In this document: positions 42,378 through 59,033 of the stretch, piece by piece | Layout of the letters: each line of letters opens with the position of its first letter | How positions within the stretch are numbered: position 1 is the stretch's first letter | Assembly: GCA_035501175.1 (NCBI GenBank) | Contig: DATJWQ010000046.1 | Location: 9,701-73,700, forward strand | DNA: 64,000 bases | Reading direction: 5' to 3' | DNA from: Verrucomicrobiia bacterium | GTDB lineage: Bacteria; Verrucomicrobiota; Verrucomicrobiia; Palsa-1439 | Translations under genes and position numbers: made by a program | The notes under the pieces: model-generated | What the model was told of the DNA's origin: nothing | Seen by the model: the letters and a program-made list of their open reading frames with translations, nothing else | Database searches by the model: none

Positions 42378-43241
42378 TCAGGTCGTGCGGTTCTTGCGCC
42401 GCCGCAGGGTAAACGGCAGCAGCAGCAAAGCGACCGCGCTCAGCGCCAGGGTCGTGGGTTCGGGTACGGCTTCGAGATCGAATTGCACGTTTCCCTGGGT
42501 GGTGTTGATGTTGACGTTGTCAACCATGCCGGTGAAACCGCCCGCCCACGCTGAGCCTGTTGATAAGACGATGCCCTCGATGTTCTGGCTGGCGTAATTG
42601 ATCGGTGTGGAGCTCCCGCCGGCGGTATAGGAACTCCAGGTAATCGAGCCACTCTGGATGTTGGCCAGCGTCGGTTCGCCATAGAACCCCTCGTTTCCTG
42701 ACAGGGCGGTGTCATCGAGCCGCAACTGATTGGCGCCGGAGGCGGTTGACCAGGTAACCCACTGGTTGGCCGGGTTGGTATAATTGGCCGCGAGATACGG
42801 CTCGAGTATCAGACGATTGCCATACCAGGATGCTTCGCCGCCAGCGTACGGAGCCGTGTAAACGATCAGATACCAGTTGGGGGATGAGGCCGCGTTGGCC
42901 GGGCTGAGGAAGGTGGAAAAGTTGAGCGAGTTGAGGTCGCTGATCGTGAGCTGACCGAGACCGCGGTTGGTATTGTCGATGGAAGAGTTGGCAGTGGAAT
43001 AGAGATAATACTGGGACGCAGCGGTGTCGTTGGCCTGCCATGCTCCCGAGCCGATCGCGGCCTCACTGGTCGTGGTATTGATGGGTGCGCTGCCGTTGCT
43101 GAGGGGGCCGTTCGAGGCATTACTGGGTCCCAAGACCACGTACGAACTTTGGCCGAAGATACTGGGCGACAAACCGGCCGCCAGCAAGATCGCCAATGCC
43201 ACGAATGTTGTGTTCATGTTTCCGTTTTGGGTTGTCCTCAT
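42378..43241 (-). CDS. PEP-CTERM sorting-domain secreted protein
   Basis: C-terminal VPEPTTLALSAVALLLLPFTLRRRKNR (PEP motif, TM helix, basic tail). N-terminal signal peptide. ATG preceded by an AAGGAG ribosome-binding site. Confidence 0.8.
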   Translation of the reverse strand: MRTTQNGNMNTTFVALAILLAAGLSPSIFGQSSYVVLGPSNASNGPLSNGSAPINTTTSEAAIGSGAWQANDTAASQYYLYSTANSSIDNTNRGLGQLTISDLNSLNFSTFLSPANAASSPNWYLIVYTAPYAGGEASWYGNRLILEPYLAANYTNPANQWVTWSTASGANQLRLDDTALSGNEGFYGEPTLANIQSGSITWSSYTAGGSSTPINYASQNIEGIVLSTGSAWAGGFTGMVDNVNINTTQGNVQFDLEAVPEPTTLALSAVALLLLPFTLRRRKNRTT

Positions 43242-43904
43242 GGTAACTCCTTTGTTTTGTCCGAATGTTCTCCGGCGGTCCTGCTTGGAGGAGTCGAGTG
43301 CAGTCCTTCTCCCGGACTGAATCCAGAAAGCCATCGCCAGTGATCACGCTCCTACGCCCATGGCTGTCAGATTACAAGCGAAATCCCGCGGAAGCATCCC
43401 GGCGAAATGCATTGGCCTTGATCTGCACGGACAATCGGGATCACCTCGATGCCAACTCCGCCTGGCCCTCGGCAGCCCTCGCCCTGTATCACGGCCCGAC
43501 GAGGGCAAGGCGTGAAATCCGGAACGGACACGCTGGCATTGGCTCCTTACTGAAGGATATGGCGGAGGTGGGGGTCTGGCGGACTCGCGGCGAGACTGTG
43601 GCTGTAGCCGGAGAGCGGAGGCATCAGGTCGCGGCGTTGCGGAAGGCGTGGGCGAGGATGCCGGCGTTGGAGGGGTGTGCACACACGTACACGATTACCA
43701 GGAGAGGGGTACTCGGCGTGCTGATGGGGCTGGTCCTGACATGCGCGGCGGACGAGGGATCGAGGTACGAATGCCATCATATTTGTGCTTGTTACTTCCG
43801 TAGCGAAGCCATACTGTGGTCAAGGAAAAGTTTGTAACGAAACCGATGGGATTGCTGGCCCGACGCTGTTGATGGTTGGGCCAAAATTGTGATTGGAGGC
43901 CGAA

Positions 43905-44477
43905 ATGTGTCACACCCGTTTGGGTTGTGTTCTCCTTGTGTCGGCGACACTCGTGTCGCTTGCGGTTGTATTGCCGAGCATTCATGCGGCAGCAGCGCCG
44001 CCAAAAGTCACTGACGTTGCTGGAGGTCAGAGTGGCATTTCTGGGAGTCAAACCAATAGTCCGACGCCGGAGGCTTCTGGCGCAGCCCTAACTACCATCC
44101 CGGCCGAGCAGGCCAAACAGCACGTTGGGGAGACCAACACGGTTTGCGGACTGATTGCCAGCGCGCGCTACATGGACTCGACAAGAGCCAAGCCGACGCT
44201 GCTGAATTTTGTCCACCCCTATCCGGACCATGTGTTTTCCGTCATGATCCCCAACTCGGCCAGGTCCAAGTTCAAGGATCCTCCCGAAACCGCGTTTATC
44301 AACAAGACGGTGTGCGTCACGGGGGCGATCATTGATTATCGAGGAAAGCCGGAAATTGTGGTGGACGACCCTTCGCAACTCGTGGTCAACGAATCGGCGC
44401 AGGTCAGTCCTGATACGACGGCCACCAACACAGTCCAGAAGACCCCGGCGCCGGGCAACGCTCCCGGACACCTGTAG
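43905..44477 (+). CDS. secreted hypothetical protein (domain shared with the 44714-45358 product)
   Basis: Signal peptide (LLVSATLVSLAVVLPSIHAAAA). A roughly 100-aa domain (QHVGETNTVCGLIASARY...KTVCVTGAIIDYRGKPEIVVDDPSQLVV) is paralogous to the neighbouring convergent gene. Confidence 0.5.
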   Translation: MCHTRLGCVLLVSATLVSLAVVLPSIHAAAAPPKVTDVAGGQSGISGSQTNSPTPEASGAALTTIPAEQAKQHVGETNTVCGLIASARYMDSTRAKPTLLNFVHPYPDHVFSVMIPNSARSKFKDPPETAFINKTVCVTGAIIDYRGKPEIVVDDPSQLVVNESAQVSPDTTATNTVQKTPAPGNAPGHL

Positions 44478-44713
44478 GATTGGAAGCCTTCATCCGCGCT
44501 GATTTCGCTGCGGAGTTTCGTTCTGCCCGGTCGCGCATTCTTGCCGGGCAGGGTGGCTTGGAGTTGTTCCCCGGCATGCAAGGCCGGACCAGATGATTGG
44601 GGCAAAGGCCGTATGCCTGCGCGAAGGGTGATACAGCCGACACTTGCGTGGTTCGTCGCTGCCGCGGCAGGGAAAGCAGGCGGAGGTTTACTTGCCGTGC
44701 TGGTGACAGCCGG

Positions 44714-45358
44714 CTAGTTGTTGGACGGAGGAGTTGGCGTATCTTCCACGACGATTTGCGCGGGGTCGCTGACCACGATCTGCGCCCGGCCGCGGCGGTC
44801 CGTCGTGATGAGGCCGGTGACACAAACCGATTTCCCCGCGAACGCGATTTCAGGAGCGACTTTGAAACGGGCCCGGCTCGCCTCGGCGATGACGACGGCG
44901 CAACTCTGGTGGGGGAACGGTCGGTCGAAGTTCAGGTACGTGGGATTTCCCGGTGAGCCGACCGCGTATTTTGCGCTGGCGACGGTTGCGCAGACGGTGT
45001 TGGTCTCCCCGACATGCTGGATCGCTTCGTCTCCGGTAAGCGTTTGGACGACCTTGATGCCGGCTGTGGCGAACAACGAACCGAGACCGCAGGCCGCGAC
45101 GATGGCCAGGAGGTAAAAGCAAACAGGATGACGACCCTTGGGCTCCCGACCTTTCATCGGAGTGTAGACTACCATGAGACCGGACCGGATACAACACATA
45201 GCTTGATCAAATAACCGAGCGGTTTGATGCGTTGGAGCAGACTTTTGCCCGGTAGCCACGACGATGATTCCTGCGGTTGCGGTGACGCGGCTGTTGGCGG
45301 TGAGCTTTGCGGAAGGCGCGGGCGAGGATGGCGGCGGTGGGGGAGATGAGCGTCGCAT
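44714..45358 (-). CDS. secreted hypothetical protein (paralog of the 43905-44477 product)
   Basis: Hydrophobic signal/anchor, then the shared domain (IQHVGETNTVCATVASAKY...KSVCVTGLITTDRRGRAQIVVSDPAQIVV). Confidence 0.5.
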   Translation of the reverse strand: MRRSSPPPPPSSPAPSAKLTANSRVTATAGIIVVATGQKSAPTHQTARLFDQAMCCIRSGLMVVYTPMKGREPKGRHPVCFYLLAIVAACGLGSLFATAGIKVVQTLTGDEAIQHVGETNTVCATVASAKYAVGSPGNPTYLNFDRPFPHQSCAVVIAEASRARFKVAPEIAFAGKSVCVTGLITTDRRGRAQIVVSDPAQIVVEDTPTPPSNN

Positions 45359-45441
45359 AAGCGAACGCGACTTTTGGGTGAGGTGGATTTGCCGTGAATA
45401 CAGGTCTGACGTCGGCTACCGAGGGGGAGGAGAAGTTGGGG

Positions 45442-47040
45442 TCAAGGCGCTCTTTCCGGATGAGGATTGAGCTCGTTTAATGCCATGGCTACTTCGGCGG
45501 AGACTTCCGAATGGGTATCGGCAAGTTTCTGGAGAACGGGGACGATGAGATGGGCCTGAGACTTGAATTCTGCCAGTGAAATGATAGCGGTCTTGCGCAC
45601 CTGCTGGTCTTCGTCATTGATGGCGGCAATCAGGGCGTCAACGCTCGCCTTGTCTTCGGCGTGCACATGACCCAACGCCCAAGCCGCCAGATACCGTGTA
45701 TACGAGTCGCTGGTCTTGAGGAGGCGAATTAGAGCCGGGACAGCGGTTGTGACGGATGCACTACTTTTCATATTGGGGTTGAGGCTTGCCAACCCGATAA
45801 TGGCACCTCGCTGAATGGTCAAATTGGTGTTCGATAAAGCCGCGATGACCGGGGCATATTCACCGACTTGAACCAACTCGCTGGCGGCTCGGCCGGAGTC
45901 CTTTTCGTCATTGAGCTGTTCCGTCAGGCGCGCAATTTCCGGCTGGATGGACTCCGGCGGCCTCTGCAAACACTCGCGCACCAGCCTGGGAAACTCGCCG
46001 TCCTGGGAAGCCGCGTCGACGGTGATGGCAATGTCTGCGCCGGGCAAGAGTTCGTGATACACCTGCTCGATTGTGATTTTCTCTTTTGATCCCAACGGTT
46101 GCCACTCGCCGACGACGCCAGCCGGATAGTCGTGATGTTCCACCGGGTTTAACTCCCAGCGCGGGGTTTCAAAATGCGCCGAGATCCGGAGATAGATCTG
46201 ACCCTTCGAGCCGGGAACGGTGTTCTGCATGAAAGATGAGTCCACCGAGGTCTCCAACAAGTTGTCGGTAGCGGATCGGTTAACGGAAGCGCGAGGGATG
46301 CTGCCGGATGCGATGCCACTGTATCCTTTGACCTCCAGGACAATCTGCTTCTGGATGGCCGACACTCGGTCGGCGATTGCCTGTTTCAAATGCTCGTCAT
46401 ATATACGATAGTTACCTTTGTTCTTGGCCCACCAATCCCACCACCAGCGGACAAACTGCTCGTGTTTTTCCCCGGTCGAATACTGGTAAAAGTTCGCGTA
46501 GTCGCGCCCGGTGATTTGACACAGGATTTGGGCGGCTTGATCCCGGATGGTCGTTTTAGTGCCCGGATAATCGAGCATGATAATCAACGGCTCGATGACG
46601 CTGGGGTCGCTGATCTCGTGCCGATTGGCCAAGTCTCGCAAGAGATACATCCGCCCCTCATTCCACTGGCACAACCGGCGCAAGGCCGCTTCCGTCGGCG
46701 TATCGGCGGACGTTGGCTGGTAGAGCACTCGGTCGACGGTGTCGGCGGAGATGCAGTCGCCATTGGTGGTGCACAACGACAGCTCGCGGGCGGCCGCGAC
46801 GGCGATTCGATTACGGTACGCTGGCGACGGATCCTGAATTGTGTCGACCCAGTTCCCCGTCCATCTGCTTCCTCCCTTTTCGCCAGGAAACGGAGCATGC
46901 AGCAACGATTCCAAGCTTTGCTCGGTATTCGTTGCCGGGGATTTTGTAGCGGCAGCTTCCTCGGCATGGGCGGCAACGGAGTACCGCATCAACGCTCCAC
47001 CCCAAACGAGTGCGAGAGCGAGGAGGAGTTTAGATGTCAT
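45442..47040 (-). CDS. secreted HEAT-repeat (PBS-lyase-like) protein
   Basis: Signal peptide MTSKLLLALALVWGGALMRYSVAAHA. C-terminal HEAT-like repeats (YTRYLAAWALGHV..., QQVRKTAIISLAEF..., SAEVAMALNEL). Lower GC than the core genome. Confidence 0.7.
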   Translation of the reverse strand: MTSKLLLALALVWGGALMRYSVAAHAEEAAATKSPATNTEQSLESLLHAPFPGEKGGSRWTGNWVDTIQDPSPAYRNRIAVAAARELSLCTTNGDCISADTVDRVLYQPTSADTPTEAALRRLCQWNEGRMYLLRDLANRHEISDPSVIEPLIIMLDYPGTKTTIRDQAAQILCQITGRDYANFYQYSTGEKHEQFVRWWWDWWAKNKGNYRIYDEHLKQAIADRVSAIQKQIVLEVKGYSGIASGSIPRASVNRSATDNLLETSVDSSFMQNTVPGSKGQIYLRISAHFETPRWELNPVEHHDYPAGVVGEWQPLGSKEKITIEQVYHELLPGADIAITVDAASQDGEFPRLVRECLQRPPESIQPEIARLTEQLNDEKDSGRAASELVQVGEYAPVIAALSNTNLTIQRGAIIGLASLNPNMKSSASVTTAVPALIRLLKTSDSYTRYLAAWALGHVHAEDKASVDALIAAINDEDQQVRKTAIISLAEFKSQAHLIVPVLQKLADTHSEVSAEVAMALNELNPHPERAP

Positions 47041-47044
47041 TGTA

Positions 47045-47938
47045 TCAATCGATGATTCCCCAAGCCAAATAGGGATTGGAAATGTTGCGGATGGTGTCCG
47101 CGGGGCGTTCTTCGAGCACATTTTGTTTCGGGTCTGAAGGTTTAAAATCGACATCCACCCTGATGTACGGACAGCGGCGATGAACAGACGTTCGATGCTT
47201 TGCGGTCGAAAGGCCACCCTCCGTGGTAAAAACCTTAGAAAGCTCTGCGCGTGTCATTCCGGGCTTAATCTTCTGACACTCGGTGAGAATGTTGGAAATC
47301 TGCTTCGTGAGATATTCGTCAACGCCGTTGCCAGTGGATTTCCGCCCATTCGTTTCGTCGAGTGTCTTCTCTGCCTCCCAACTCACGAGCCTGTCGTGCT
47401 CATCAAACTGTAGTGTGACCTCGTTCAGCCATGACGGTGTTTGGGCGGCCGTCTCGTGCTGCGAGACCTGCACTCTCCCATCGTTGTTCGTCGTGGGCGG
47501 TAGCACGTCGAGGGTGACTTCGTCACTCCAATACGTCTTCCGGCTATCGATCGGCGTGAAGCCCATACGAAACGAGACTGTCTTTTGGGAAATCGGTCCC
47601 GAGACGAGCATCTCCAACTGGTTCGTATATACGCCACCGGGCGGGAATTCGACATTCCTCGCCACGTTTCTCGTACACTCTCCGACAATCCAGGAGACGT
47701 TTGTGTTGCTCGTCTTCCATTCGTCCTGCCAACGGCAACTCATCACGCGCACGGTTTGATTGGTTGCTGTCGGATTCTCAACGCGCAGTGTGACCGGGAA
47801 AACTTCTTTGATGCGAACCACGGTCCTGGAAGGTGTGACAACAACCCGAAGTGAGTCTGCGTCGGCGGCGCCTGCAGACAAAGCCGCCAATGCGCCACTC
47901 CAAACGAGCGCGAGGCAACAGATGATTTTGGGGTTCAC
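47045..47938 (-). CDS. secreted mosaic protein: family signal peptide, unique N-terminal domain, conserved roughly 90-aa C-terminal domain shared with the 50982-51890 product
   Basis: GTG start encoding VNPKIICCLALVWSGALAALSAGAADA. C-terminus ILTECQKIKPGMTRAELSKVFTTEGG...CPYIRVDVDF...NPYLAWGIID. About 85% nucleotide identity to 50982-51260. Confidence 0.6.
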   Translation of the reverse strand: MNPKIICCLALVWSGALAALSAGAADADSLRVVVTPSRTVVRIKEVFPVTLRVENPTATNQTVRVMSCRWQDEWKTSNTNVSWIVGECTRNVARNVEFPPGGVYTNQLEMLVSGPISQKTVSFRMGFTPIDSRKTYWSDEVTLDVLPPTTNNDGRVQVSQHETAAQTPSWLNEVTLQFDEHDRLVSWEAEKTLDETNGRKSTGNGVDEYLTKQISNILTECQKIKPGMTRAELSKVFTTEGGLSTAKHRTSVHRRCPYIRVDVDFKPSDPKQNVLEERPADTIRNISNPYLAWGIID

Positions 47939-47945
47939 AGCCGTC

Positions 47946-48494
47946 CTATTTCTTTCGCGACTCAAATGTTTTTTGCGACTCGCGTCCTTCCTGTGATTCG
48001 AGTTCCCTGATATACACCCCGTCTTCGATGTAGACAAACCGCAGCGTCTCGGTATCAAGAACAAAATCCGTCCACGCCATGCGTCCCCACGGCACTGCGA
48101 TGAATAACATCTTTTCGTTGAGCCAAGCGTGGCGAATCTCGTAACTCGCCTGATCAAGCAGCTCCACGCGGACACACCGATTCGTGTCGGCGGAATCAAA
48201 GATATAAAGCCGCGTATCCCAGGGCCCGGCGCGCCTGGTATCCGGCTTTTCTTCGACCAGCCACCGTGAATTAAATTCTGTGTTATCTTTCGGCAGGGAA
48301 GCCAATTCAGCCAGTTGTTCGCCCGTCAAGGGAATGCGCTTGATTTTGATTTTCTGCAAACTGGCCCCAGAAGGTGTGGAATACAACACGGCATCCTGTC
48401 GCGGTGATGGAACCGTCGTGCATCCGAGCAGACCGCCGCTCCAAACGAGCGCGAGGGCGAGGACTTTGAGAGTGTGGCGCGCAGTGCTTCGCAT
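47946..48494 (-). CDS. lipoprotein, hypothetical
   Basis: Signal with lipobox (LKVLALALVWSGGLLGCT). Lower GC (about 50%). Confidence 0.55.
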   Translation of the reverse strand: MRSTARHTLKVLALALVWSGGLLGCTTVPSPRQDAVLYSTPSGASLQKIKIKRIPLTGEQLAELASLPKDNTEFNSRWLVEEKPDTRRAGPWDTRLYIFDSADTNRCVRVELLDQASYEIRHAWLNEKMLFIAVPWGRMAWTDFVLDTETLRFVYIEDGVYIRELESQEGRESQKTFESRKK

Positions 48495-48500
48495 TGTGAG

Positions 48501-49265
48501 TTATGGCGTCTTTAGCGGCACGGCAAATGGCTTCCCCGTATTCAGATCCATCTCCTGCCCATCAACAACAGACCTGCTTACCTTCTTGGCGGTGAGATCC
48601 ATCCATATACTTCCCAGCTTCTGCGTCTTTGGATGCCGTATATCAAGCCGCAAGATGCCATCGGTTAGGTCTATCGCTTCGACCAGAGGCATTACCAATC
48701 CTCCGCCCGGAGCCGGGGCGTCCGAGAAATAAAATTGCGGAAGGGACTGCATTAATTGTATTCGATTAGCTGTTATGCGCTGATTGAACTCGTGACTCAG
48801 CTTCTCGGTGTTGATCTCTTTCTCAAACTGAGCAATGGCGGTGGTGCTGGAATTGGTGTCAGGCAACCCGAAGTAACTGCTCGACCAAACCAGAACGCCA
48901 GGGCCGACAGTGAACCCCTTCATTCCAGAGCGATCGGAAACGTAAAAGGAATGTTCTCCGTCAATGAACCACCATTTCTTGGTATGGGGATCGTCAACTT
49001 CCAGGATCGAAAACCTCTCCGGTATAAGACTTCCGGGGTCGGGCTTGGGTACGACTTGATAGACAGCCCGCCTTACCGTAGTTGTCTCAGTTTTGCATTT
49101 GGTTGCAGGCGGCCCGGAAGAACCGGGCACGATCAACTTGATAGTGCTATCGGCCCACGGCTCGATAAATTCAGTTTTCATGGGCGTTGCGTTGGAAACG
49201 CTATCTCCCATCGAATACACCAAGGTTGCCACCAAGAGAAAGAAGATCACAGCAGTGTATTTCAT
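48501..49265 (-). CDS. secreted hypothetical protein
   Basis: Signal peptide MKYTAVIFFLLVATLVYS. GC about 48%, the lowest in the window. Confidence 0.55.
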   Translation of the reverse strand: MKYTAVIFFLLVATLVYSMGDSVSNATPMKTEFIEPWADSTIKLIVPGSSGPPATKCKTETTTVRRAVYQVVPKPDPGSLIPERFSILEVDDPHTKKWWFIDGEHSFYVSDRSGMKGFTVGPGVLVWSSSYFGLPDTNSSTTAIAQFEKEINTEKLSHEFNQRITANRIQLMQSLPQFYFSDAPAPGGGLVMPLVEAIDLTDGILRLDIRHPKTQKLGSIWMDLTAKKVSRSVVDGQEMDLNTGKPFAVPLKTP

Positions 49266-49378
49266 TGTTTCAATTCGGTTCTGCCTTCATTGGACACCTG
49301 GTTTGGGCGTTCGTTCGCTTACGCGCGCCAAAGAAGCGGATTGCTTTGCCGTTCGCTCCGCTGCGTCATCAGACGGCG

Positions 49379-49993
49379 TCATGGCTTCTTGACCGCAATT
49401 TTGACCTTGGGCAGTTGAAGCGTTCCCTGCCAGACGTAGTAGTTGAGGGAACTGGGGTGGTTGGTCGGGGGGCGGAACGTGGCCGACAAGTAGTAGTCGT
49501 TGGTAGCGCCAGGCCGAATGTCCCACAAGTCATCGGGGCCTACCAGTATGCTTACCCCGTCGGGCTTCGTCGAGTCAGAGCACAAACCGGGATCGGCTTG
49601 CAACCGCAGGGTGGAATTGCACGGCAACGTCACCCAGTACGGATTCGTCGGCACGTAGGCGTCAATTGGAGGGGATTTGTACGGGATGGCTTTGTTGAGA
49701 CCATCGTGCATTTCAAAGTGCAGGCCGGCGGACATACGGAAACAAATCTCGATCGGGTTGCGCCAGACATCGGTGCAGATGTGTTGCAACTCCAGATAGA
49801 CTCGGGCGTGTCCCCACATTTTGGTTCTGCTGTAATACTCCGCATCGTAAATGAGCAGGCGTCCGCGAAGCGTGTACCCGGCGGGATCACTGACGGGTTC
49901 CGACCAATCGCCGACGGCAATGAGGTTTGTGTCGGTCTGGGCGAAGGCGCAGGGAGGGCCGGCGAGCAACAGGAATAAGACGACGGACTTCAT
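49379..49993 (-). CDS. secreted hypothetical protein homologous to the N-terminal domain of the 50982-51890 product
   Basis: Signal MKSVVLFLLLAGPPCAFAQ. Shared blocks NLIAVGDWSEPVSD, GYTLRGRLL, VYLELQ, TLPCNSTLRLQ and WQGTLQLPKVKI. Confidence 0.6.
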   Translation of the reverse strand: MKSVVLFLLLAGPPCAFAQTDTNLIAVGDWSEPVSDPAGYTLRGRLLIYDAEYYSRTKMWGHARVYLELQHICTDVWRNPIEICFRMSAGLHFEMHDGLNKAIPYKSPPIDAYVPTNPYWVTLPCNSTLRLQADPGLCSDSTKPDGVSILVGPDDLWDIRPGATNDYYLSATFRPPTNHPSSLNYYVWQGTLQLPKVKIAVKKP

Positions 49994-50216
49994 AATGTGC
50001 GAACGCCATTAGACCTCTGATGAAACACCAAGAAAAGCACAAAGGCCAGCCTCCACGTTGAGTAATTTGCGAGCCTCGCGGCTTGAGGTGCGGAGAACTG
50101 CCGCGCTTGGCAACCGCGGCTACAGTTCCCGCTTGATGATGCGGCTATCTCCCGCCCGCAGCCCGCTCTTGCCCTCTGAAACCCGCCCCTGCCACTCAAG
50201 TCCACCCCTGTACCGT

Positions 50217-50801
50217 CTAGTCTGATATAATGAAGTCTGCAAAATTGGACTGCAAAGTGCCAACCCAAGTGTTCCACCCCACCCAAACAAACCCGCTGTT
50301 ATTGTGGTGTTGGTGGGTTTCCGAGAGTTGAGCAGCGATACGGTAGGCCCCTTTCTCTAGTTTCATCGTCCATTCCTTTGTTTGCGGACACCAATACTGG
50401 CTAAGCCTGACCCTCAAAACATGAACTGCACCCGCTTGAAGTCCAACTGCATAGTCATCAATCCGCCCTGAGACACTAGCCGGGCCGGTTGGCTCAAGTT
50501 CTCTGCGATGTCCTTGAGCATCCAGGAGAACAAGATGAATGGCTGTAGGAAAGAGACTACGTCCGTTTCCGAGGGTCATACCGAGATTCAAGAATACGTC
50601 GTTCGTGCCGACATTCCGCACCGCAATGTCAAACTCAGGGTCTTGCCCTGTTTTAAGTTGGGTATACACGGGAGAAATTGCGATTTGTAATCCATTGCTG
50701 GCGGTTCCCCAAAACTCAGGTGCGTCGTTGACCAATGAGGTTGCATAGGAGCATGGAACGGAAACGATCAGCAGCACGGCAAGGCTCAGAGTCTTAATCA
50801 T
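50217..50801 (-). CDS. secreted hypothetical protein
   Basis: GGAGG ribosome-binding site; signal peptide MIKTLSLAVLLIVSVPCSYA. Confidence 0.55.
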   Translation of the reverse strand: MIKTLSLAVLLIVSVPCSYATSLVNDAPEFWGTASNGLQIAISPVYTQLKTGQDPEFDIAVRNVGTNDVFLNLGMTLGNGRSLFPTAIHLVLLDAQGHRRELEPTGPASVSGRIDDYAVGLQAGAVHVLRVRLSQYWCPQTKEWTMKLEKGAYRIAAQLSETHQHHNNSGFVWVGWNTWVGTLQSNFADFIISD

Positions 50802-50828
50802 TGTTGCCTCCTTCTGTCCGTCGATTCA

Positions 50829-50978
50829 TCAATCCGTTCTTGCCGTCACGGACAAATAACTCTGTGCTGCGTTCGTCGAGACCGGTGCATTGGTTTCGTC
50901 AGCGCGGGCAACACGGGCACAGCCAGACAAGCCGACGCCCCAAACCAGCGTGAGGGTGAGGAGGAGTTTAAATGTCAT
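50829..50978 (-). pseudogene. 49-codon ORF encoding only a family-type lipoprotein signal peptide (MTFKLLLTLTLVWGVGLSGCA...); probable gene remnant or micro-lipoprotein
   Basis: Begins with the same conserved cassette (atgacatttaaactcctcctc...) found at the starts of the 45442-47040 and 56657-57964 genes, then stops after 49 codons. Confidence 0.35.
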
Positions 50979-50981
50979 TGT

Positions 50982-51890
50982 TCAATCGATGATGCTCCAA
51001 GCCAAATACGGATTGGAAATCTTGGTGATGGTGTCTGTGGGGCGCTCTTCTAGGACATTCTGTTTCGGGTCTGAAGGTGTAAAATCGACATCCACCTTGA
51101 TGTACGGACAGCGGCGATGAACAAACGTTCGATGAGCCGCGGTTGACATGCCGCCTTCGGTTGTGAAGACCTTCATCAGGTCGGCGCGGGTCATGCCGGG
51201 CTTGATCGTCTGGCATTCCGTGATAACGTCCAGAATCTGGTCCATCAGGCCCTTGTCGATTTCAGATTTCCGGGTCGTGGCAGGCGGGACCTTGACTCTC
51301 GGCAGCACCAACGTCCCGTGCCAGACGTGTCCGCGTGCAAGTTCCTTTCGCATCGCCTCGATGTCGGTAGAGTTGGACTTGGGCACGGTGAACGTCCCGG
51401 AGAGGAAGCGGTCGCCAGGAGCGCTGGGTGGAAGGAACCAGAACGCTGCAGGGAGCTGAATCGCCCAACCGGGGCCTTTGGGGATTCCCCAGCCATTGAC
51501 GGAAACGCGGAAGCGCAGCGTGGAATCGCAAGGAAGAGTCAGTGTGGTGATCGCGTCAGGCAGTGGACCGATAATGTCCGCCTCTGTGGGCGTTGGTGGC
51601 GGTGTCTTCCCCGCAGCATCGACAACCTCGCAATCCAGCGCCCGCTCGCTGTAGTCCACAAGTACCGAGGCGAGGATGCGGGATAGGTTCTGCAACTCGA
51701 GGTACACGACAGCCGTACGGGTGCCATTGTATGGCGCGTCTTCGGCAAGGATGAGTCTTCCGCGAAGCGTGTAGCCATTATCGCTCACGGGCGCCGACCA
51801 CTCGCCGACGGCGACGAGGTTGGTATGGGTTTGTCCGAGGGCACCTGAAGAGCTGGCGAGCAGCAGGAACAAGACGATGGACTTCATCAT
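50982..51890 (-). CDS. secreted mosaic protein: N-terminal domain shared with the 49379-49993 product plus conserved C-terminal domain shared with the 47045-47938 product
   Basis: Signal MMKSIVLFLLLASSSGALGQ. C-terminus ITECQTIKPGMTRADLMKVFTTEGG...CPYIKVDVDF...NPYLAWSIID. Confidence 0.65.
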   Translation of the reverse strand: MMKSIVLFLLLASSSGALGQTHTNLVAVGEWSAPVSDNGYTLRGRLILAEDAPYNGTRTAVVYLELQNLSRILASVLVDYSERALDCEVVDAAGKTPPPTPTEADIIGPLPDAITTLTLPCDSTLRFRVSVNGWGIPKGPGWAIQLPAAFWFLPPSAPGDRFLSGTFTVPKSNSTDIEAMRKELARGHVWHGTLVLPRVKVPPATTRKSEIDKGLMDQILDVITECQTIKPGMTRADLMKVFTTEGGMSTAAHRTFVHRRCPYIKVDVDFTPSDPKQNVLEERPTDTITKISNPYLAWSIID

Positions 51891-52158
51891 GGGCGATTAC
51901 CCTTCATACCAGTCGAGCGTGCGAATGCCATTAGACCGCTGATGAGACGGCGAGGAAAGCACAAACGGCGGCCATTGTTGCCGGGCGCGCGCGGAAGGCG
52001 CGGGCGAGGAGAGGGGCGGTCGGCATGAAGTACGGAGCTGGGTCCTCTTACTGACTGACGATAAGAGCGCAGCCGGAGATTGTTCACCGAGTCGTGAACG
52101 CGGCTTTATTGTCTGAGTGCCGTTTCGTCCTCTCGGCTGCGCTCCCGATCCTGAATCG

Positions 52159-54030
52159 TCAGGGCGTGACCTGCATCCGATAGAATCGTTGGGGTCCCAA
52201 GGCCCCGCCGGAGTTGGTCAGGATGATCAACCCACCGGGGCTATTGCTCAGGACGACGCCCGAGACGTTTGCCCAACTGCCCGTCGTCATTGAACTCCGG
52301 GTTTGCAATTGGTAATCGTCCCCCGCAACGGCCTGGGCGGAGACGGCGACGCCATTCGGGATCGCCGCAATCCCGCAGATCTGATTTGTCGTCCCGCGGG
52401 TCGGCGCGAAGTTGGCTGTCAGGATCTCGCTGTTCGTCGCGGTGAACGTATAACACGGCAAAGTGCTGACCACGTTGCTATTCGGATCAGTCCAGCTCAC
52501 GAAGTTGTAACAATCGTCCGGGATCGCGAAGATCTGTACGGGGAAGCAGCAACGGATGGTGCCGCCGCCAGTGGTCCAGCCGCCATTCGGTTGCGCGGAA
52601 GCGGTACCGGTCGTATACGTACACGCAATCAGGCAGGTGAGCGTTGCTCCATAGCTGCCCGTCCCTGAATAGTTGCCGGAATGCACCAAGAGCGTGTAGA
52701 CACCGGAGACACTGAATGTGACGTTACTGGCTGTACCCGGACCGATGCTGAACAATTTGTTGCCGGTTGGGTCGTACAGGTCGAACTCCGAACCGCTGAA
52801 GCCGCTGGTGCTGATTATCACCACGTCGTTGCTGCAGCCGTCGATTTGATAGGCATCCATCTCCGCTCTGTTCGTGGTGGCGCCACTGACAGTTTGTCCG
52901 CAAACGATCGGTTGACCATCGCACCCGCCGCCAATGATCGACTGAATGCTCAACTGATAGTTGCCGGTGCCATTGTAGGAGGCAGCATGCACGAGGATTG
53001 TGTACGTACCGCTGTTGGTCAGGGTCATGTTGATGGCGGTGCCGGCGTTGCAGTTGGGTGAAGCTACGGTGGCGAGGTATTGCCCGCTAGGACTATAGAT
53101 GTCCGCGTTCATCGATTGGTAAGGTGAAAGGCAATCGAGCGGCCCGTACAAGGCGAACGACAGGTCCTGCCCGGCTGCGCCAACGTAGCTGTAGGCGTTG
53201 ATCTCACTGTTAAAAACCGTGTTGCTCGCAATTGGCTGGCCACAGGTAATGGGTGTGCCGTTACACCCACCCTCGATAGCTGATTGGATACTCAACTGAT
53301 AGTTGCCGGTGCCATTGTAGGAGGCAGCATGCACGAGGATTGTGTACGTACCGCTGTTGGTCAGGGTCATGTTGATGGCGGTGCCGGCGTGGCAGTTGGG
53401 TGAAGCTACGGTGGCGAGGTATTGCCCGCTAGGACTATAGATGTCCGCGTTCATCGATTGGTAAGGTGAAAGGCAATCGAGCGGCCCGTACAAGGCAAAC
53501 GACAGGTCCTGCCCGGCTGCGCCAACGTAGCTGTAGGCGTTGATCTCACTGTTAAAAACCGTGTTGCTCGCGATTGACTGGCCGCAAACAATGGGTGTGC
53601 CATTACACCCGCCGTCGATGGCTGACTGGATACTCAACTGATAATTGCCGGTGCCATTGTAGGATGTGCAATGCACAAGAATTATGTAGCTGCCGGTATT
53701 CGTTAGGGTCATGGTGAGAGCAGCACCGGTGTTGCAGTTACCCGATGTAAGGGCGGCCAGATGCTGTCCGCTAGGGCTATAGATGTCCGCGGTCATTGAT
53801 TGGTAAGGTGAAAGGCAATCGAGTGGTCCGTACAATGCGAACACCAATTCCTGCCCCGCGGTGCCGGCGTAGGTGTACTGGTCGACTTCGCTGTTGGCAA
53901 CGGTGTTGCTTGCGATTGGTTGTCCGCAGGTGATGGGGGTTTGGGCGCGGACGGCCCTCGCCCAGAAGGCCAGCCCGAACACCAGCAGGACGTAGAAATT
54001 GAACGCGCGGTTTGTCGAAGATGTTTTCAT
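52159..54030 (-). CDS. secreted protein with four tandem PPC-like (pre-peptidase C-terminal-like) domains and a C-terminal tail
   Basis: GGGAGA ribosome-binding site. Signal MKTSSTNRAFNFYVLLVFGLAFWARAVRA. About 110-aa units, three nearly identical (ITCGQPIASNTVFNSEINAYSYVGAAGQDLSFALYGPLDC...DIYSPSG...GTYTILVHAASYNGTGNYQLSIQS). Confidence 0.65.
   Translation of the reverse strand: MKTSSTNRAFNFYVLLVFGLAFWARAVRAQTPITCGQPIASNTVANSEVDQYTYAGTAGQELVFALYGPLDCLSPYQSMTADIYSPSGQHLAALTSGNCNTGAALTMTLTNTGSYIILVHCTSYNGTGNYQLSIQSAIDGGCNGTPIVCGQSIASNTVFNSEINAYSYVGAAGQDLSFALYGPLDCLSPYQSMNADIYSPSGQYLATVASPNCHAGTAINMTLTNSGTYTILVHAASYNGTGNYQLSIQSAIEGGCNGTPITCGQPIASNTVFNSEINAYSYVGAAGQDLSFALYGPLDCLSPYQSMNADIYSPSGQYLATVASPNCNAGTAINMTLTNSGTYTILVHAASYNGTGNYQLSIQSIIGGGCDGQPIVCGQTVSGATTNRAEMDAYQIDGCSNDVVIISTSGFSGSEFDLYDPTGNKLFSIGPGTASNVTFSVSGVYTLLVHSGNYSGTGSYGATLTCLIACTYTTGTASAQPNGGWTTGGGTIRCCFPVQIFAIPDDCYNFVSWTDPNSNVVSTLPCYTFTATNSEILTANFAPTRGTTNQICGIAAIPNGVAVSAQAVAGDDYQLQTRSSMTTGSWANVSGVVLSNSPGGLIILTNSGGALGPQRFYRMQVTP
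52870..53530. repeat. near-identical roughly 330-bp tandem repeats (two full copies) inside the PPC-domain gene; a third more diverged copy follows to about 53850
   Basis: 52890-53220 and 53221-53550 differ by only a few bases (for example gtgccggcgttgcag versus gtgccggcgtggcag). Confidence 0.8.
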
Positions 54031-54588
54031 GATCCGTTTCTCCCTACGATGATTTTGTCGGTTCACACTTGTCGTACGTTGTCGCTGCGCCGGGCGAATT
54101 CTGTTCGCACGGGAAATTCAGATCTCCTTTTCCGGAACGCAGAATGACGGACAGGCAGGGTGAAACAGTGGGATGAAGACACAGGAATTCCTCGCCCTCA
54201 TGGTTTCTCGCCTTCCTTATCCTCGCCTCGGTGCAGACGCTCCCAGGCCGGTGCTTTCCTGACTCGGCCTGGCGACACAACTCGCCATTGGTTATGTATT
54301 GCTCCTAGCCTGGCGCAGACAGGGCACCGGGTCGGGCCGTAGAAAACAGGCCCTCAAACGGGGTGACGTGGCTTATACGCGTATGGAGGTCATAATTGCA
54401 AGACATTTTGGATGACGGTTTCGTGATAACTGGCTGGGCGTGCCGAAGAAGAGAAGGACATGAAGACGCCACGGCGGAGACGCTTCGGTCGGAGGAAGTG
54501 CGCGGTCGGGAGACCGGTGCACAACGAGCGGCACGGCTCGGAGAGCCGCGCCAGAGGCGGGCAAGCCGTGGCTACACCGGCGACGCGC

Positions 54589-56082
54589 TTATCGTCGGCA
54601 GGTTTCGCGGAAGGCGCGGGCGAGGATGGCGGCGTTGGTGGCGATGAGGAAGTTGTGTTCGGTCCAGGCGCGGCCCGAGTTGCTGAGGCGTTGACGGAGA
54701 GCCGGATCGGCGGCGAGGCGTTGGACGGCGGTGGTGAGGTGGGCGGGGTTGGATGGGTCGGCGATGATACCCGTGACGTCGTGGGTGACGGCTTCCATCG
54801 GGCCGGCGGTGGGGCTGGAGATCACGGGCAGGCAACGGGCGAAGGCTTCCGGGATGACGTTCGGGATGCCGTCGCGGTCGCCTTCGGGATCGACGATGCC
54901 GGTGTGCCAGAAGATGTCGGCCCAGAGATATTGATCGTTGACCTGATCGGGCGGGAGCGGGCCGGTGAGCGTGACGAAGTCGTGAAGGCCGGTGCGGTCG
55001 ATTTGCTGTTGAAGTTCGCGGCGGAGCGGGCCGTCGCCGACGATTGTTGCTACAAACGGCACGCCACGGGATTTCAAGAGCGAGCAGGCGGCGAGTTGGT
55101 GGACGTGACCCTTCTTCGGGACGAGACGGCCGACGGAGAGGAGTCGGATCGGGCGTGAGGTCGAGGTGGTGGCGTCGCGTTTCGGGAGAGGCGGAAGTTT
55201 TTCCAGGCCGCGGCGGGCAAGGACGATTTTCACGGGCGCGCCGTGGGCGCGGTCGCGGAGGTATTGCGCGGCGGCGTTGGTGGTGGTGTGGACGAAGGCA
55301 GCGGCGCGCAATTTGGGTTCCAAGAACGCGTCGCCGCCATGACGATAGATGTCGTAGGCGTGACCGCCGAAGCTGAACGGGACGTTGCAGAGTCGGGCGA
55401 GGATGGCGGCGGCGGTGGCGGGCGCGGTGGCCCAGACGCCGTGGATGATGTCGGGTTTGTGTTGGCGGAAGCGGCGGGCGCGGCAGATGGCGAAGACCAC
55501 GGCCCAGATGGTTGACCAGAAATTCTCGGGGTTGGTGGGTCGGTAGCGGCGGAAGAGATGCCAGCCGTCGCGGAGGAGGGCGGGGTCGCGGAGGAGTTCG
55601 CGGGGCAGGGCGATGAGGACGGCGATGGATTCCCACCAGCGGAACGTGTCGACGGGGATGTCGGCGATTAGTGATGAAGAACCCGCCTTCGCCACACGAC
55701 TGGCTACGGCGGGCAAGCCCTCACCCTGACCCGCCTTCGCCACACGACTGGCTACGGCGGGCAAGCCCTCTCCCTTATCCGGCAAGGGCGAGGGGACTCT
55801 CGTCTGTGGCGTCGTTTGGTGAGTGGGAGATTTGCGCTTTGAATTTTGACCAGGGAGAAGCTGTGCCAGGTCGGCGGGGCGCGGGGGGAAGAGCGAGTGG
55901 ATTTCGATGCGGATGCCGTGGTCGCGGAGGCCGGCGAGTTCGCGGCGGAAGAAAGTCTGGGAGAGCACGGGGTAGCGCTCGAAGATGTAGGCGACGGTGA
56001 GGCCACCGACATCCAATGTCGGGGTGAATACGGGGGGGTTAGTTTTCAATCGTGGAGCGTATTCAGCGGGTGCGTCAGTCAT
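54589..56082 (-). CDS. glycosyltransferase family 4 with a low-complexity N-terminal insert containing a 15-aa duplication
   Basis: GT4 C-terminal motif (EAFARCLPVISSPTAGPMEAV). The insert GEGLPAVASRVAKAG occurs twice, encoded by a 45-bp tandem duplication around 55690-55790. Confidence 0.7.
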   Translation of the reverse strand: MTDAPAEYAPRLKTNPPVFTPTLDVGGLTVAYIFERYPVLSQTFFRRELAGLRDHGIRIEIHSLFPPRPADLAQLLPGQNSKRKSPTHQTTPQTRVPSPLPDKGEGLPAVASRVAKAGQGEGLPAVASRVAKAGSSSLIADIPVDTFRWWESIAVLIALPRELLRDPALLRDGWHLFRRYRPTNPENFWSTIWAVVFAICRARRFRQHKPDIIHGVWATAPATAAAILARLCNVPFSFGGHAYDIYRHGGDAFLEPKLRAAAFVHTTTNAAAQYLRDRAHGAPVKIVLARRGLEKLPPLPKRDATTSTSRPIRLLSVGRLVPKKGHVHQLAACSLLKSRGVPFVATIVGDGPLRRELQQQIDRTGLHDFVTLTGPLPPDQVNDQYLWADIFWHTGIVDPEGDRDGIPNVIPEAFARCLPVISSPTAGPMEAVTHDVTGIIADPSNPAHLTTAVQRLAADPALRQRLSNSGRAWTEHNFLIATNAAILARAFRETCRR

Positions 56083-56656
56083 TCCGTGCGGAGGATAGTA
56101 TGTTTGCGGGGGTTATTTCAATGGTGGCGGGAGACGATGGGTGAGAATCGGCAGACTCGTCCTCAGATTGGAGTGATGGAGTGAGGGGGTACTGGAGTTT
56201 TGGACGCGGATCCTCCCTCAATTCGGATGCTTTCGGCTCCACGCAGCCCCGAACTCCGAACGAGTTCGCGAGTCCTGCGGAGGAATTCGGGGTAAAAGTT
56301 CGCAGAGGGCGCAGAGAACACCCGGACTGATCTTTGCCCGATTCGGTAAGGGGCCAAATCAGGCAAACGGCACCCGGGGGCGGTGGCGGAGTGGGGCGCG
56401 GCGGGCAACGCCTTTGCAGAAAGGAGGGACCCCGACCTCGACCGTTCCGCAGCCCCGACGTACACAGGCCATCCGCGTTGTGTCAATACTAAGGACTGAC
56501 CCCTTTATGACCCCTTTACTAAGGACTGACCCCTTTACGGGGACGGTTGCGTAAAACGTTGACCCCCCTTGACCGCCGAATTCAACGGGAATCGTCGTTT
56601 GCTCCTCCGCCCGTTGTAGGGGCGCTTCTGCGAAGCGCGCGCGATTGGGCAAATCT

Positions 56657-57964
56657 TCATTCACTCGTAGCTATTCTCTTGAGTGCAGACCGCGCGGCAC
56701 GTCGCACATTCTCGTCGGGATCGACAAGAAGTTGCTTAAGATCTGGGACGGCTGCAATTGCGACCGCTCCTAAACGTCCCAATGCATCAGCGGCATGCAT
56801 TCGAACGATGTACTCCGGATCGTGCAGCAGGGCGACCAACCCGGGCGCGGCATCCTTTGCTCCCGGGCCGATCTTACCAACAGCAACCGCACCCCAGTCA
56901 CGAACGAGATTGCGATAACTCCGGCTTTGATCCTGGAGCGTTGAGGTTAGCAAAGGCACTGCTGATTCGGCGTGCGGTCCAATTGCACCAAGGCAATATA
57001 TAATCGCAAGGCGTCCCTGTAAGTTCTCTGTTTGATATAGCCGCATCAAGGCGGGAACGGCTTCTGCTGCATTTGCACCTCGGTCCGCTATTGCGCGGAC
57101 TGCGAGCACACGAATCTCCGCGTCTTTGTCCTTCATGAGATCGATGAATATGGAGACGCTCCTTGTGTCGTTGGGAAGTGACACGGATAATGCGTCCGCA
57201 GTCATATACCGCGCACGGTTATCCAGTGCCTCGTCGCGAAGCAAATTCAGTAGCGAGGGGATTGCCTCCTGAGCTGCGCGGCCCATCCGGCCAAGGGCGC
57301 CGAGGGCCGTAACACGCAGCTTGGTGTCCCGGAGGGCTTGCGCTAACTGTGGGGCTGCTTGCACGGCCGACGGCCCCACGGAATCCCAACACTCAATAAT
57401 CTTCAGTCGTGTCTGTTCATCGCTGGTTTGATAGAGTGTCATCAGCACAGGCATTGCTTCCACGGCCTTCTCATGAAACGTGCCCAAGGTAGTGATAGCC
57501 AGATCCCTCAGGTCCGGGTCGTGCTCTTTTAGGAGTTCGACATAGGCCGGAAGCGCGTCCGGATCACGAGGATAGACTCTGTCCAAGGCGTATGCGGCCG
57601 ATAGGCGCACTTCCTTCGGCTGGCTCTTGTCTTGCACCATTTTAATCAACGCGGGCGCGGCCGCCTGCCCGGCCTCAGCGATCTTGCTAATGCCGTAGAG
57701 AGCTTGGTCAACATTGGTGCTTTGGGCAGTAATGATAGTCCCGGGAACAGCTTGGCCTGCTTCATTGGTTGAGAGGCTCGAAAGCGGCGGGCTGGCCGCA
57801 TGCTCGTCTTGAGTCACACCGAAGGAAGATTGGAGCCGAACGGCGAACAGCCATATCACGAGCACCACTAGATTAGGCACTGCATGCCTGTTTTTGTGTG
57901 CCCCAAAGCCAAGCATGCTGACGTTCCAAACGAGCGCAAGGGCGAGGAGGAGTTTGGGGTTCAT
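56657..57964 (-). CDS. secreted HEAT-repeat (PBS-lyase-like) protein
   Basis: Family signal peptide MNPKLLLALALVWNV... Multiple HEAT-like units (EVRLSAAYALDRV, RDLAITTLGTF, RVLAVRAIADRG, VRMHAADALGRLG, VRRAARSALKRI). Confidence 0.7.
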   Translation of the reverse strand: MNPKLLLALALVWNVSMLGFGAHKNRHAVPNLVVLVIWLFAVRLQSSFGVTQDEHAASPPLSSLSTNEAGQAVPGTIITAQSTNVDQALYGISKIAEAGQAAAPALIKMVQDKSQPKEVRLSAAYALDRVYPRDPDALPAYVELLKEHDPDLRDLAITTLGTFHEKAVEAMPVLMTLYQTSDEQTRLKIIECWDSVGPSAVQAAPQLAQALRDTKLRVTALGALGRMGRAAQEAIPSLLNLLRDEALDNRARYMTADALSVSLPNDTRSVSIFIDLMKDKDAEIRVLAVRAIADRGANAAEAVPALMRLYQTENLQGRLAIIYCLGAIGPHAESAVPLLTSTLQDQSRSYRNLVRDWGAVAVGKIGPGAKDAAPGLVALLHDPEYIVRMHAADALGRLGAVAIAAVPDLKQLLVDPDENVRRAARSALKRIATSE

Positions 57965-57997
57965 GGCTTTGTGGGGCATACAGCCGGCCTCTTGAAA

Positions 57998-58342
57998 TTA
58001 CAACAGGTGCGCGACGACGAATAGAAAGAGCAGAAACGTTAGAAGTAACAAGGGCACGGCGGCCACGGCGAACGTTTGAAGCGCGGGTTTCACGTCGCCC
58101 CGAATAGCTTGCAGCACGGCTCCGAGCACCAGGAACGGTGCGCACAACGCGTAGGCCGCTAGCAACACGTCTGTGGTGTGATCAATCCTGGAGGCATTTA
58201 CTCCCGTGAAATGAATGATAATCGGATCGCCGAGGAGAATACGAAAAACCAAGTAGAACGGGAAAACGCTGACGACATACAGTTTGAATGGAATCAGCAC
58301 CCAATTGGTCCATTTGGCTTTCGTGAATGGGGAGCGGCACAT
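57998..58342 (-). CDS. small membrane protein, hypothetical
   Basis: 114 aa with three predicted TM helices; preceded by the conserved leader motif. Confidence 0.45.
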   Translation of the reverse strand: MCRSPFTKAKWTNWVLIPFKLYVVSVFPFYLVFRILLGDPIIIHFTGVNASRIDHTTDVLLAAYALCAPFLVLGAVLQAIRGDVKPALQTFAVAAVPLLLLTFLLFLFVVAHLL

Positions 58343-58512
58343 GGTAGATCATGATTGTTGTAGTGCAGACGCCATTAGACTGCTGAAGGGGCGGCAAGGA
58401 AAGCAGAAAGAGGAGTAGTTGGCAGTTGGGAATCTATTTCGCCAGGCTGATCGCGGTGATACTATATGGATCGTGCGGTTCGGCGCCGACACAAAGCCAT
58501 GAGGAGTTGCTT

Positions 58513-58875
58513 ATGAAACGAGTCCTTGGATTGTTGGTCGTGATGACACTTGCATGTCAAACCCAGATCGCCCAGTCCGCGCTGGAGGGAGATCGTACCA
58601 TCCCACTCCCGAAGTATAGTCCTGCTCAAGCGATTGAAAAGGTGAGCAAGTATTATCGGGACGACAACGGCGATCCCGAGTGCTTCGTGATTTCCGTCCG
58701 TTACGGGCGACCCGACCTGATGGGGCCTTGTCTGGGCAGCAATTCGGTGCGCGGAGATTGGCAGGAGTGGTCATGGTTTGTCACATTCGCGCATCCTAGG
58801 AAACCCTACTCGGAGATCGTGTACCGTTTGCGGGACAACGGAGAGATCTACCCGCTCATTCAAGCGCGCACGTAA
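58513..58875 (+). CDS. small secreted hypothetical protein
   Basis: GAGGAG ribosome-binding site then MKRVLGLLVVMTLACQTQIAQS signal peptide. Confidence 0.45.
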   Translation: MKRVLGLLVVMTLACQTQIAQSALEGDRTIPLPKYSPAQAIEKVSKYYRDDNGDPECFVISVRYGRPDLMGPCLGSNSVRGDWQEWSWFVTFAHPRKPYSEIVYRLRDNGEIYPLIQART

Positions 58876-59033
58876 TAGCGGTTTGAAGTGGCTGAATTGT
58901 TGGGGGCGTGGTCGACAGGCTGGGGCGGAGCGGCCAGCGCATTTACAAATAGGAGAGAACGAAGATCGACCATTGCACGGGAACGACGTAGGCAAAGCGA
59001 GCGGCGTTGCGGCGATACTGAGGGCTGACCCGT

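Follow-up and report, generated by a model that had tools for sequence, protein, structure and literature searches.

In the 64,000-nt stretch of Verrucomicrobiia DNA analysed here (the window), three minus-strand genes appear to be preceded by one and the same short element, which raises the question of what this element does and whether it acts on DNA or on RNA. An earlier note on this DNA had placed the element in front of the genes at 49379-49993, 50982-51890 and 57998-58342, and had suggested a shared promoter, an operator or a structured 5′ UTR. The repeat itself is borne out by pattern counts: three copies of the motif TTTnTGCTTTyCTyG-N14-GTCTAAT-N7-GCAC, all on the minus strand, stand before these genes (Table 1) and are non-random. 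The 23-nt degenerate pattern CAGNGGTCTAATGGCRTTCGCAC, with up to three mismatches allowed, has exactly three sites in the window versus 0.00 expected in shuffles, and TGCTTT-N19-GTCTAA finds exactly the same three sites as the motif copies versus 0.02 expected. A repeat search groups the copies as one family (D7), in which copies 2 and 3 are 82% and 69% identical to copy 1. The motif string quoted in the earlier note was one C short; the correct sequence is GGCCTTTGTG... Other matches to GTCTAATGGC (at 1938 and 10792) and a partial look-alike near 59121 were rejected as copies: they lie within coding sequence and lack block B, the TGCTTT... part of the motif.

Table 1. Motif copies, adjoining elements and the genes behind them (window coordinates; copies in related metagenome contigs are listed by contig).
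Feature	Position	Strand	Description
Copy 1 (c1)	49997..50051	-	Block B TTTGTGCTTTTCTTG 50043-50029; GTCTAAT 50014-50008; GCAC 50000-49997; ATG of the 204-aa gene 49993
Upstream box A of c1	50052..50075	-	GGCTCGCAAATTACTCAACGTGGA; from copy alignments
Copy 2 (c2)	51919..51973	-	Block B 51965-51951; GTCTAAT 51936-51930; GCAC 51922-51919
Leader of c2 to the ATG of the 302-aa gene	51891..51918	-	28 nt, with a GAAGGG Shine-Dalgarno-like site
Copy 3 (c3)	58363..58417	-	Block B 58409-58395; GTCTAAT 58380-58374; GCAC 58366-58363
Copy-1 gene group	45442..49993	-	204-aa secreted all-beta protein, 254 aa, ~147 aa, ~297 aa, HEAT-repeat protein of ~515 aa
Copy-2 gene group	50217..51890	-	302-aa paralogue of the 204-aa protein, small ORF, 194-aa secreted protein
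Copy-3 gene group	56657..58342	-	114-aa membrane protein, 440-aa HEAT-repeat protein
Copies in L016, L017 and L022			Before orthologues of the 204-aa protein (84%, 66% and 67% identity, respectively)
Copies in L023 and L020 (L020b)			Before paralogues of the 204-aa protein, only 45-51% identical
Copy in L019			Before an 82% orthologue of the 114-aa gene
Copy in L020 (L020a)			Before a 174-aa gene heading a 174-81-113-256 aa operon

The genes behind copies 1 and 2 are paralogues, whose first 117 nt of coding sequence share about 79% nucleotide identity (repeat family D6). Thus, only copy 3 represents an independent gene association within the window. Its location is a 170-nt intergenic region from which two genes diverge, the 114-aa gene on the minus strand (ATG at 58342) and a 120-aa gene on the plus strand (ATG at 58513). 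The co-directional genes behind copy 1 presumably form a single transcription unit, and HEAT-repeat proteins are encoded by the last genes in two of the three groups. Searches of the motif-proximal proteins against Pfam and NCBIfam returned no match. The 204-aa and 114-aa proteins are identical to the hypothetical proteins VMP11_09670 and VMP11_09705 ('MAG TPA: Verrucomicrobiae bacterium'), and the window region is also present on soil-metagenome contigs from ENA and JGI. The 204-aa family, one of secreted all-beta proteins of about 200 aa, counts more than 130 homologues in soil and peat metagenomes. The AlphaFold2 model of the 204-aa protein is all-beta with a signal peptide (pLDDT 86), and no fold in the PDB matches it with E < 1e-3. 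Overall, the proteins of the cluster look secreted or envelope-associated.

Copies in relatives were obtained by fetching the contigs of homologues of the motif-downstream proteins; the 440-aa HEAT-repeat protein, used as a homologue query for whole clusters, gave generic HEAT-repeat matches only. Seven further and more diverged copies were found in related metagenome contigs (L016, L017, L019, L020 with two copies, L022 and L023), for a total of ten, and their ungapped consensus is TTT.tGCTTtcct.G..g..cC.tcaG..gTcTAAT. The motif is kept in at least seven organisms or strains and before unrelated genes, while the adjacent intergenic sequence cannot be aligned. Among distant family members (L009, L013 and L015; 55-70% amino-acid identity), no recognisable copy is present. 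For the genome at hand, an nhmmer profile and a fuzzy two-block scan of the 64-kb window and 7 kb to its right (L021) revealed no further copies. The earlier note had named a lack of additional copies genome-wide as refuting its proposal; none was found elsewhere in about 71 kb of this genome, and the additional copies lie instead at homologous clusters of relatives, a distribution that suggests a signal specific to the cluster and not a broad regulon. GTDB species genomes and JGI metagenome contigs were also scanned, using TGCTTT-N15-TCAG-NN-GTCTAATGG; they gave two and three matches, respectively, in unrelated low-GC organisms, at chance level and with no further similarity. That pattern was too strict, given that L016 and L017 have TCGG and not TCAG, and the window's organism is absent from both collections; the two scans therefore say nothing on absence or distribution.

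The ten copies share a rigid anatomy. The distance from block B (TGCTTT...) to block C (T-n-TAAT) is identical in all ten. Indels are found outside this span: of 1 nt, immediately 5′ of block B and immediately 3′ of block C, and of 28 nt, in the leader. This rigid spacing of about two helical turns is as in a -35/-10 pair, or as for any protein that contacts both blocks. Block B reads TGCTTTyCT in eight copies, AGCTTTCCT in L023 and TGCTTCCCA in L022. Seven copies carry GTCTAAT, the others having TTCTAAT (L017), GTGTAAT (L020b) or GTTTAAT (L022), and GCAC follows 7-8 nt after TCTAAT in 7/10. The spacer (CCATCAG) is more conserved than typical promoter spacers are; recent common ancestry, gene conversion or an overlapping operator could account for this. 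Upstream of block B, at a distance of about 10 nt, the copies c1, L016, L017, L019 and L020a share a further block, box A, with the consensus GCAAAnCGTTCnACGCGrG. In c3, box A is degenerate, and c2, L020b and L022 lack it; in c2 and L020b, a relic of a glycosyltransferase C-terminus stands in its place. Box A may be the site of an accessory regulator.

The placement of the motif is equally regular. It is always sense to the downstream gene and about 20-80 nt before the ATG, with TAAT about 20-60 nt before the start codon, and it travels with this gene whatever the upstream neighbour, be it a methyltransferase gene (L022), that of a 247-aa membrane protein (L017), a 94-aa ORF (L016) or the 194-aa gene (window). 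For the L023 copy, the location is an intergenic region of about 325 nt between divergent genes; in the short divergent regions of this copy and of c3, a promoter must exist. In L020, the motif is found at the head of the operon, about 800 nt upstream of the 113-aa gene, whose product is a 75% orthologue of the 114-aa protein and which, like its counterpart in the window, has retained a proximal leader of its own (CAACAATCGTGATCTACC-ATG). Because the proximal leader is retained while the motif sits at the operon head, we conclude that the motif marks the start of a transcription unit and not the start of translation. Moreover, the similarity among copies does not mirror the phylogeny of the genes. 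Copy 1 shares 68% identity with the copy of its orthologue in L016 versus 84% with the L019 copy, which stands before an unrelated gene of another organism, and identity between copies is only 15-70% in the 20 nt directly 3′ of the motif. As far as the alignments tell, this fits sites held to one recognition consensus, and sequence exchange could contribute.

The earlier description of the element as immediately upstream of the gene starts holds for copy 1, where 3 nt separate GCAC from the ATG, but not for copies 2 and 3, whose cores end 28 and 20 nt before it. Compared with copy 2 and the orthologous L016 and L017, copy 1 lacks about 28 nt of 5′ leader, including a Shine-Dalgarno site of the GGAGGG/GAAGGG type, and a leader equivalent to that of c2 is present in L016, L017, L020b, L022 and L023. 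Direct repeats of GGCrTTyGCAC bound the missing stretch (49994-50008 in the window, against L016:1090-1135 and L017:9127-9168). The tight ATG spacing of copy 1 is, judged by these comparisons, a derived deletion. If transcription starts near GCAC, the mRNA of the 204-aa gene would be nearly leaderless.

Two of the possibilities raised at the outset, a shared promoter or operator, fit the orientation of the motif, its placement 20-80 nt from the starts at group heads, its invariant spacing and its conservation in relatives. With moderate confidence, we favour the reading of the motif as a lineage-specific promoter, i.e., a DNA-level signal for transcription initiation, possibly with an adjacent regulator site. 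This promoter would probably be read by an alternative sigma factor. RNA polymerase carrying such a factor would contact block B (TGCTTTyCT) as a -35-like element, and the same holoenzyme would contact block C, (C)GGTCTAAT, as a -10-like element 16-17 nt downstream of it. Transcription would then start a few bases downstream of block C, near the conserved GCAC, with the gene-specific leader and ribosome-binding site coming after the start. In this way, one promoter module, duplicated or recruited before different genes, would bring them under common control, and would drive three co-directional groups of a rearranging cluster for secreted and membrane proteins. Polymerase binding, the position of the start site and co-regulation are what we infer from the observed anatomy of the motif and from the comparative behaviour of its copies. 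A sigma-70 consensus scan of 44000-60500 offers no alternative promoter near c3. As for the factor itself, a tblastn search with two ECF sigma factors finds no sigma factor in the window, and neither Sigma70_r2/r4 domains nor an obvious DNA-binding regulator are found by Pfam in the window or in the motif-bearing loci. Besides this negative result, the conserved spacer, the missing AAC core of the -35-like block, the lack of A at position 2 of TCTAAT, the absence of the motif from L009, L013 and L015 and a weak coding-like substitution pattern in one frame count against the promoter reading.

Promoters of ECF sigma factors have a -35 element with an AAC core (GGAAC or TGAAC) located 15-17 nt upstream of the -10 element, the -10 has a (C)GTC core, as in GGTCAAAA or GTCTAA, and transcription starts 5-6 nt past the -10; a cognate sigma gene, usually with an anti-sigma gene, lies nearby and is itself preceded by the motif (autoregulation). 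The best-known example, the sigma-E promoter of E. coli, comprises GGAACTTTT, a preferred spacer of 16 nt and the -10 sequence (T/C)GGTCAAAA (PMC1312014). The -10-like block of the motif, CGGTCTAAT, resembles CGGTCAAAA and agrees with this -10 sequence at seven of nine positions (PMC1312014). The motif further resembles RpoE-type promoters in the GTC core of its -10-like block (GTCTAAT in seven of the ten copies); in having two strongly conserved blocks whose distance is constant at about 16-17 nt, a 16-nt spacer placing the -35 at TGCTTTyCT; in being far more conserved than a housekeeping promoter; and in preceding genes for envelope or secreted proteins. It differs from them in that the -35-like block lacks the AAC core in all ten copies, that the C of GTC is replaced in two copies (GTG in L020b, GTT in L022) and the G by T in L017, and that no sigma or anti-sigma gene next to any copy, nor an autoregulated sigma gene, was found in the motif loci and in about 71 kb of the genome. 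Since the -35-like block is without the AAC core, the motif is not a canonical ECF promoter, and an ECF-like character of the promoter, to go by its sequence, appears doubtful though possible. Two distant loci of the 204-aa family, L009 and L013, adjoin ECF-type sigma genes, and both are without the motif. A promoter common to the ECF sigma gene of L013 and the family member beside it was considered and rejected, as the two share only the 7-mer CGTCTAA, within chance. Box A, read on its other strand (GTGGAAC/GTTGAAC), was likewise considered as a divergent promoter of the ECF type and set aside, c1 having no divergent gene.

Housekeeping sigma-70 promoters follow TTGACA-17-TATAAT, with the hexamers 16-18 nt apart; the second base of the -10 hexamer is A and the sixth is T. 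The motif is similar in that TCTAAT matches TATAAT at five of six positions and stands at an appropriate distance from the start codon. Nevertheless, position 2 of its -10 is C, G or T and not A, and the only TTG is 12-14 nt away, leaving no TTG-type -35 at 16-18 nt; the motif is thus not a canonical housekeeping promoter. The sigma-70 consensus scan mentioned above (44000-60500) found five sites, none of them at the motif copies. Sigma-54 promoters, in turn, are defined by GG and GC doublets 10 nt apart (TGGCAC-N5-TTGC), and in a direct reading of the ten-copy alignment no GG...GC pair so spaced is invariant.

Among published concepts, the closest is that of putative mobile promoters, described under the term 'promoter propagation' by Matus-Garcia, Nijveen and van Passel in 2012 as sequences of at least 80% identity over 50-100 nt that occur before non-homologous genes (PMC3488235). 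The motif is like them as a homologous stretch of about 50 nt upstream of non-homologous genes (the 204/302-aa family, the 114-aa gene and the 174-aa gene of L020), with copies that recur in related genomes. Their identity lies below or at that threshold and extends over a somewhat shorter length, c1 and c3 being 69-73% identical (69% over 55 nt) and c2 and c3 81% over only 37 nt; unlike putative mobile promoters, the copies are clustered within 8.4 kb and not dispersed, and no mobile element is associated with them. A bolder version of the promoter reading, which we hold to be improbable, is that soil Verrucomicrobiae have an uncharacterised alternative sigma factor which recognises the motif, the -35 (TGCTTTyCT) being non-canonical and the -10 RpoE-like, and that the motif is carried on a portable module whose copies also act as breakpoints that shuffle secreted-protein cassettes between strains.

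If the motif is a promoter, the uncharacterised secreted, membrane and HEAT-repeat proteins of this uncultured soil Verrucomicrobiae lineage would be a co-regulated unit, and there would be a concrete sequence with which to search complete genomes for the sigma factor or regulator behind it. The motif would also be a natural example of one promoter module reused before unrelated genes in a rapidly rearranging cluster. It is, at the same time, an ordinary kind of regulatory signal, and current concepts of bacterial gene regulation are not challenged by it.

Among the alternatives, the motif could be the operator or activator site of a cluster-specific transcription factor and not a core promoter, the protein binding block B and/or the CATCAG-GTCTAAT block, perhaps also box A, and switching the three groups together. 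The conserved stretch of about 37 nt together with box A is indeed longer and more continuous than two hexamers, and the copies are confined to one cluster and its homologues instead of being spread over 71 kb; in addition, a response-regulator gene and a PAS sensor adjoin the L023 copy. However, the motif shows neither the dyad nor the direct-repeat symmetry that most bacterial regulators recognise, no regulator gene is conserved beside the copies, and the 170-nt region of c3 would still need a core promoter, for which no other candidate was seen. We consider an operator in place of a promoter to be unlikely.

The same sense-only position upstream of start codons would suit an unstructured element of the 5′ UTR, such as a pyrimidine-rich standby site for ribosomal protein S1 or a target of a small RNA or RNA-binding protein. 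Block B would be U-rich in the transcript (CUUUUGUGCUUUCCUUGC), and the L022 motif begins 8 nt past the stop codon of the upstream gene, such that read-through transcripts could include it. Nevertheless, in L020 the motif is far removed from the 113-aa gene, whose proximal leader is kept; the distance from GCAC to the ATG ranges from 3 to about 37 nt, with the Shine-Dalgarno sites downstream of the motif; and the strict 20-nt block spacing has no obvious meaning in an unstructured RNA. A structured leader fares no better. RNAalifold applied to eight diverged copies gives zero consensus pairs and no covariation, MFE z-scores on both strands lie between -1.5 and +1.2 in 15 of 16 folds (the exception being L020a antisense, -3.5), and an Rfam E-value scan of 44000-60500 yields nothing relevant, with only two weak, irrelevant matches elsewhere. 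With no consensus pairs, z-scores near zero and no relevant Rfam match, the structured 5′ UTR proposed in the earlier note, and likewise a small RNA, is unsupported. We give an RNA-level role of the motif only a small chance.

A different kind of explanation starts from a coding-like frame. The frame that ends at the invariant TAA of GTCTAAT reads (F/L)(C/S)AFLA(V/A)PSAV* in all ten copies (in c1, 50009-50050), and its pN/pS is 0.51, compared with 0.85 and 1.92 in the other two frames. Differences in this frame number 33, 74 and 112 at codon positions 1, 2 and 3, respectively. An upstream ORF or leader peptide was therefore a candidate, and was rejected: the stop is invariant, but c3 and L017 have no in-frame ATG, GTG or TTG at all, and in L019 and L020b the sole in-frame start is a GTG among the final few codons. 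Given these missing starts, the greater variability at second than at first codon positions, and the 1-nt indels between box A and block B that break the frame, the motif is not a translated upstream ORF. The weak coding-like bias may have arisen by chance, given a frame of 11 codons, or be left over from a former coding sequence.

The latter option can be extended to the motif as a whole, which would then be a non-functional relic, either of a C-terminal coding end (...CAFLAVPSAV*) or of a short upstream ORF, kept alike by recent duplication or gene conversion. Besides the peptide itself, this would agree with a region full of coding relics, for instance the glycosyltransferase tail (..LLARAFR) just 5′ of c2 and L020b. 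It would also agree with the fact that paralogues with only 41-45% protein identity are still about 80% identical at the nucleotide level across the motif plus the initial 110-155 nt of coding sequence, a pattern of nucleotide over protein similarity that is consistent with gene conversion. Yet the lack of start codons, the indels that disrupt longer frames and the variable second codon positions all speak against it, as does the persistence of the motif before unrelated genes in several organisms amid unalignable intergenic sequence. We see little prospect for a mere relic.

The cluster in which this putative promoter is embedded is pieced together from paralogous modules, namely repeated N-termini resembling signal peptides (D4/D8), a C-terminal domain (D2) common to the 302-aa and ~297-aa proteins, and glycosyltransferase-tail relics (D5/D12). 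L016 lacks the entire block of about 9 kb between c3 and c1, and downstream of the glycosyltransferase gene, the window and L020 are homologous up to a point just before the element; the motif copies thus coincide with module boundaries. Such coincidence is expected if promoter-plus-gene units duplicate, or if dispersed repeats serve as substrates of recombination. That the motif is instead a dedicated recombination site bounding exchangeable, integron-like cassettes, or a hotspot of homologous recombination, is highly improbable: the L016 indel is bounded by motif copies and the L020 homology does break just before the element, but there is no inverted repeat in or around the motif, the motif is 5′ of genes whereas attC sites are 3′, an integrase or recombinase is absent from the Pfam calls of neighbouring genes, and recombination among dispersed 50-nt repeats of any kind would produce such an indel pattern, with no dedicated function involved.

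Several observations on the cluster are recorded here in their own right. Relics of the glycosyltransferase C-terminus (..ILARAFRE) are found at 45280-45350, 51991-52023 and 54578-54648 and at L020:5438-5490; they stand just 5′ of copy 2 and at the start of the ORF 44714-45358, and the relic in L020 is fused to the N-terminus of a HEAT protein (MNPKLLLARAFREARQH*). They look like traces that deletions and rearrangements have left in the cluster. A signal-peptide-like start, M(N/T)xKLLLALALVW..., recurs in otherwise unrelated genes (46980-47039, 47899-47937, 48419-48470, 50918-50977 and 57904-57963) with 62-79% conservation at the nucleotide level. The common N-termini may represent a shared sorting signal or 5′ modules exchanged between genes.

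Repeats within genes are present as well. The gene of a 635-aa secreted protein contains three tandem 342-nt repeats (52907-53890; 76-93% identical), and the length of its product among strain variants is 509, 623 or 635 aa. In the gene of the 497-aa glycosyltransferase, a 48-nt tandem duplication at 55681-55776 (96% identical) encodes GEGLPAVASRVAKAG twice; an ENA strain variant of this protein has 481 aa, which would fit a single 48-nt copy. The 570-nt intergenic region between the genes of the 440-aa HEAT-repeat protein and the 497-aa glycosyltransferase carries three closely spaced TAAAGGGGTCA units (minus-strand reading) at 56487-56537, two of which are exact 21-mers, TAAAGGGGTCAGTCCTTAGTA, 30 nt apart, and a related copy, TAAACGGGTCAGCCCTCAGTA, is located at 59016-59036. 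The TAAAGGGGTCA units could be a second, unrelated cis-element. Finally, just outside the cluster, the protein encoded at 42378-43334 ends in a PEP-CTERM-like sorting tail (VPEPTTLALSAVALLLLPFTLRRRK).
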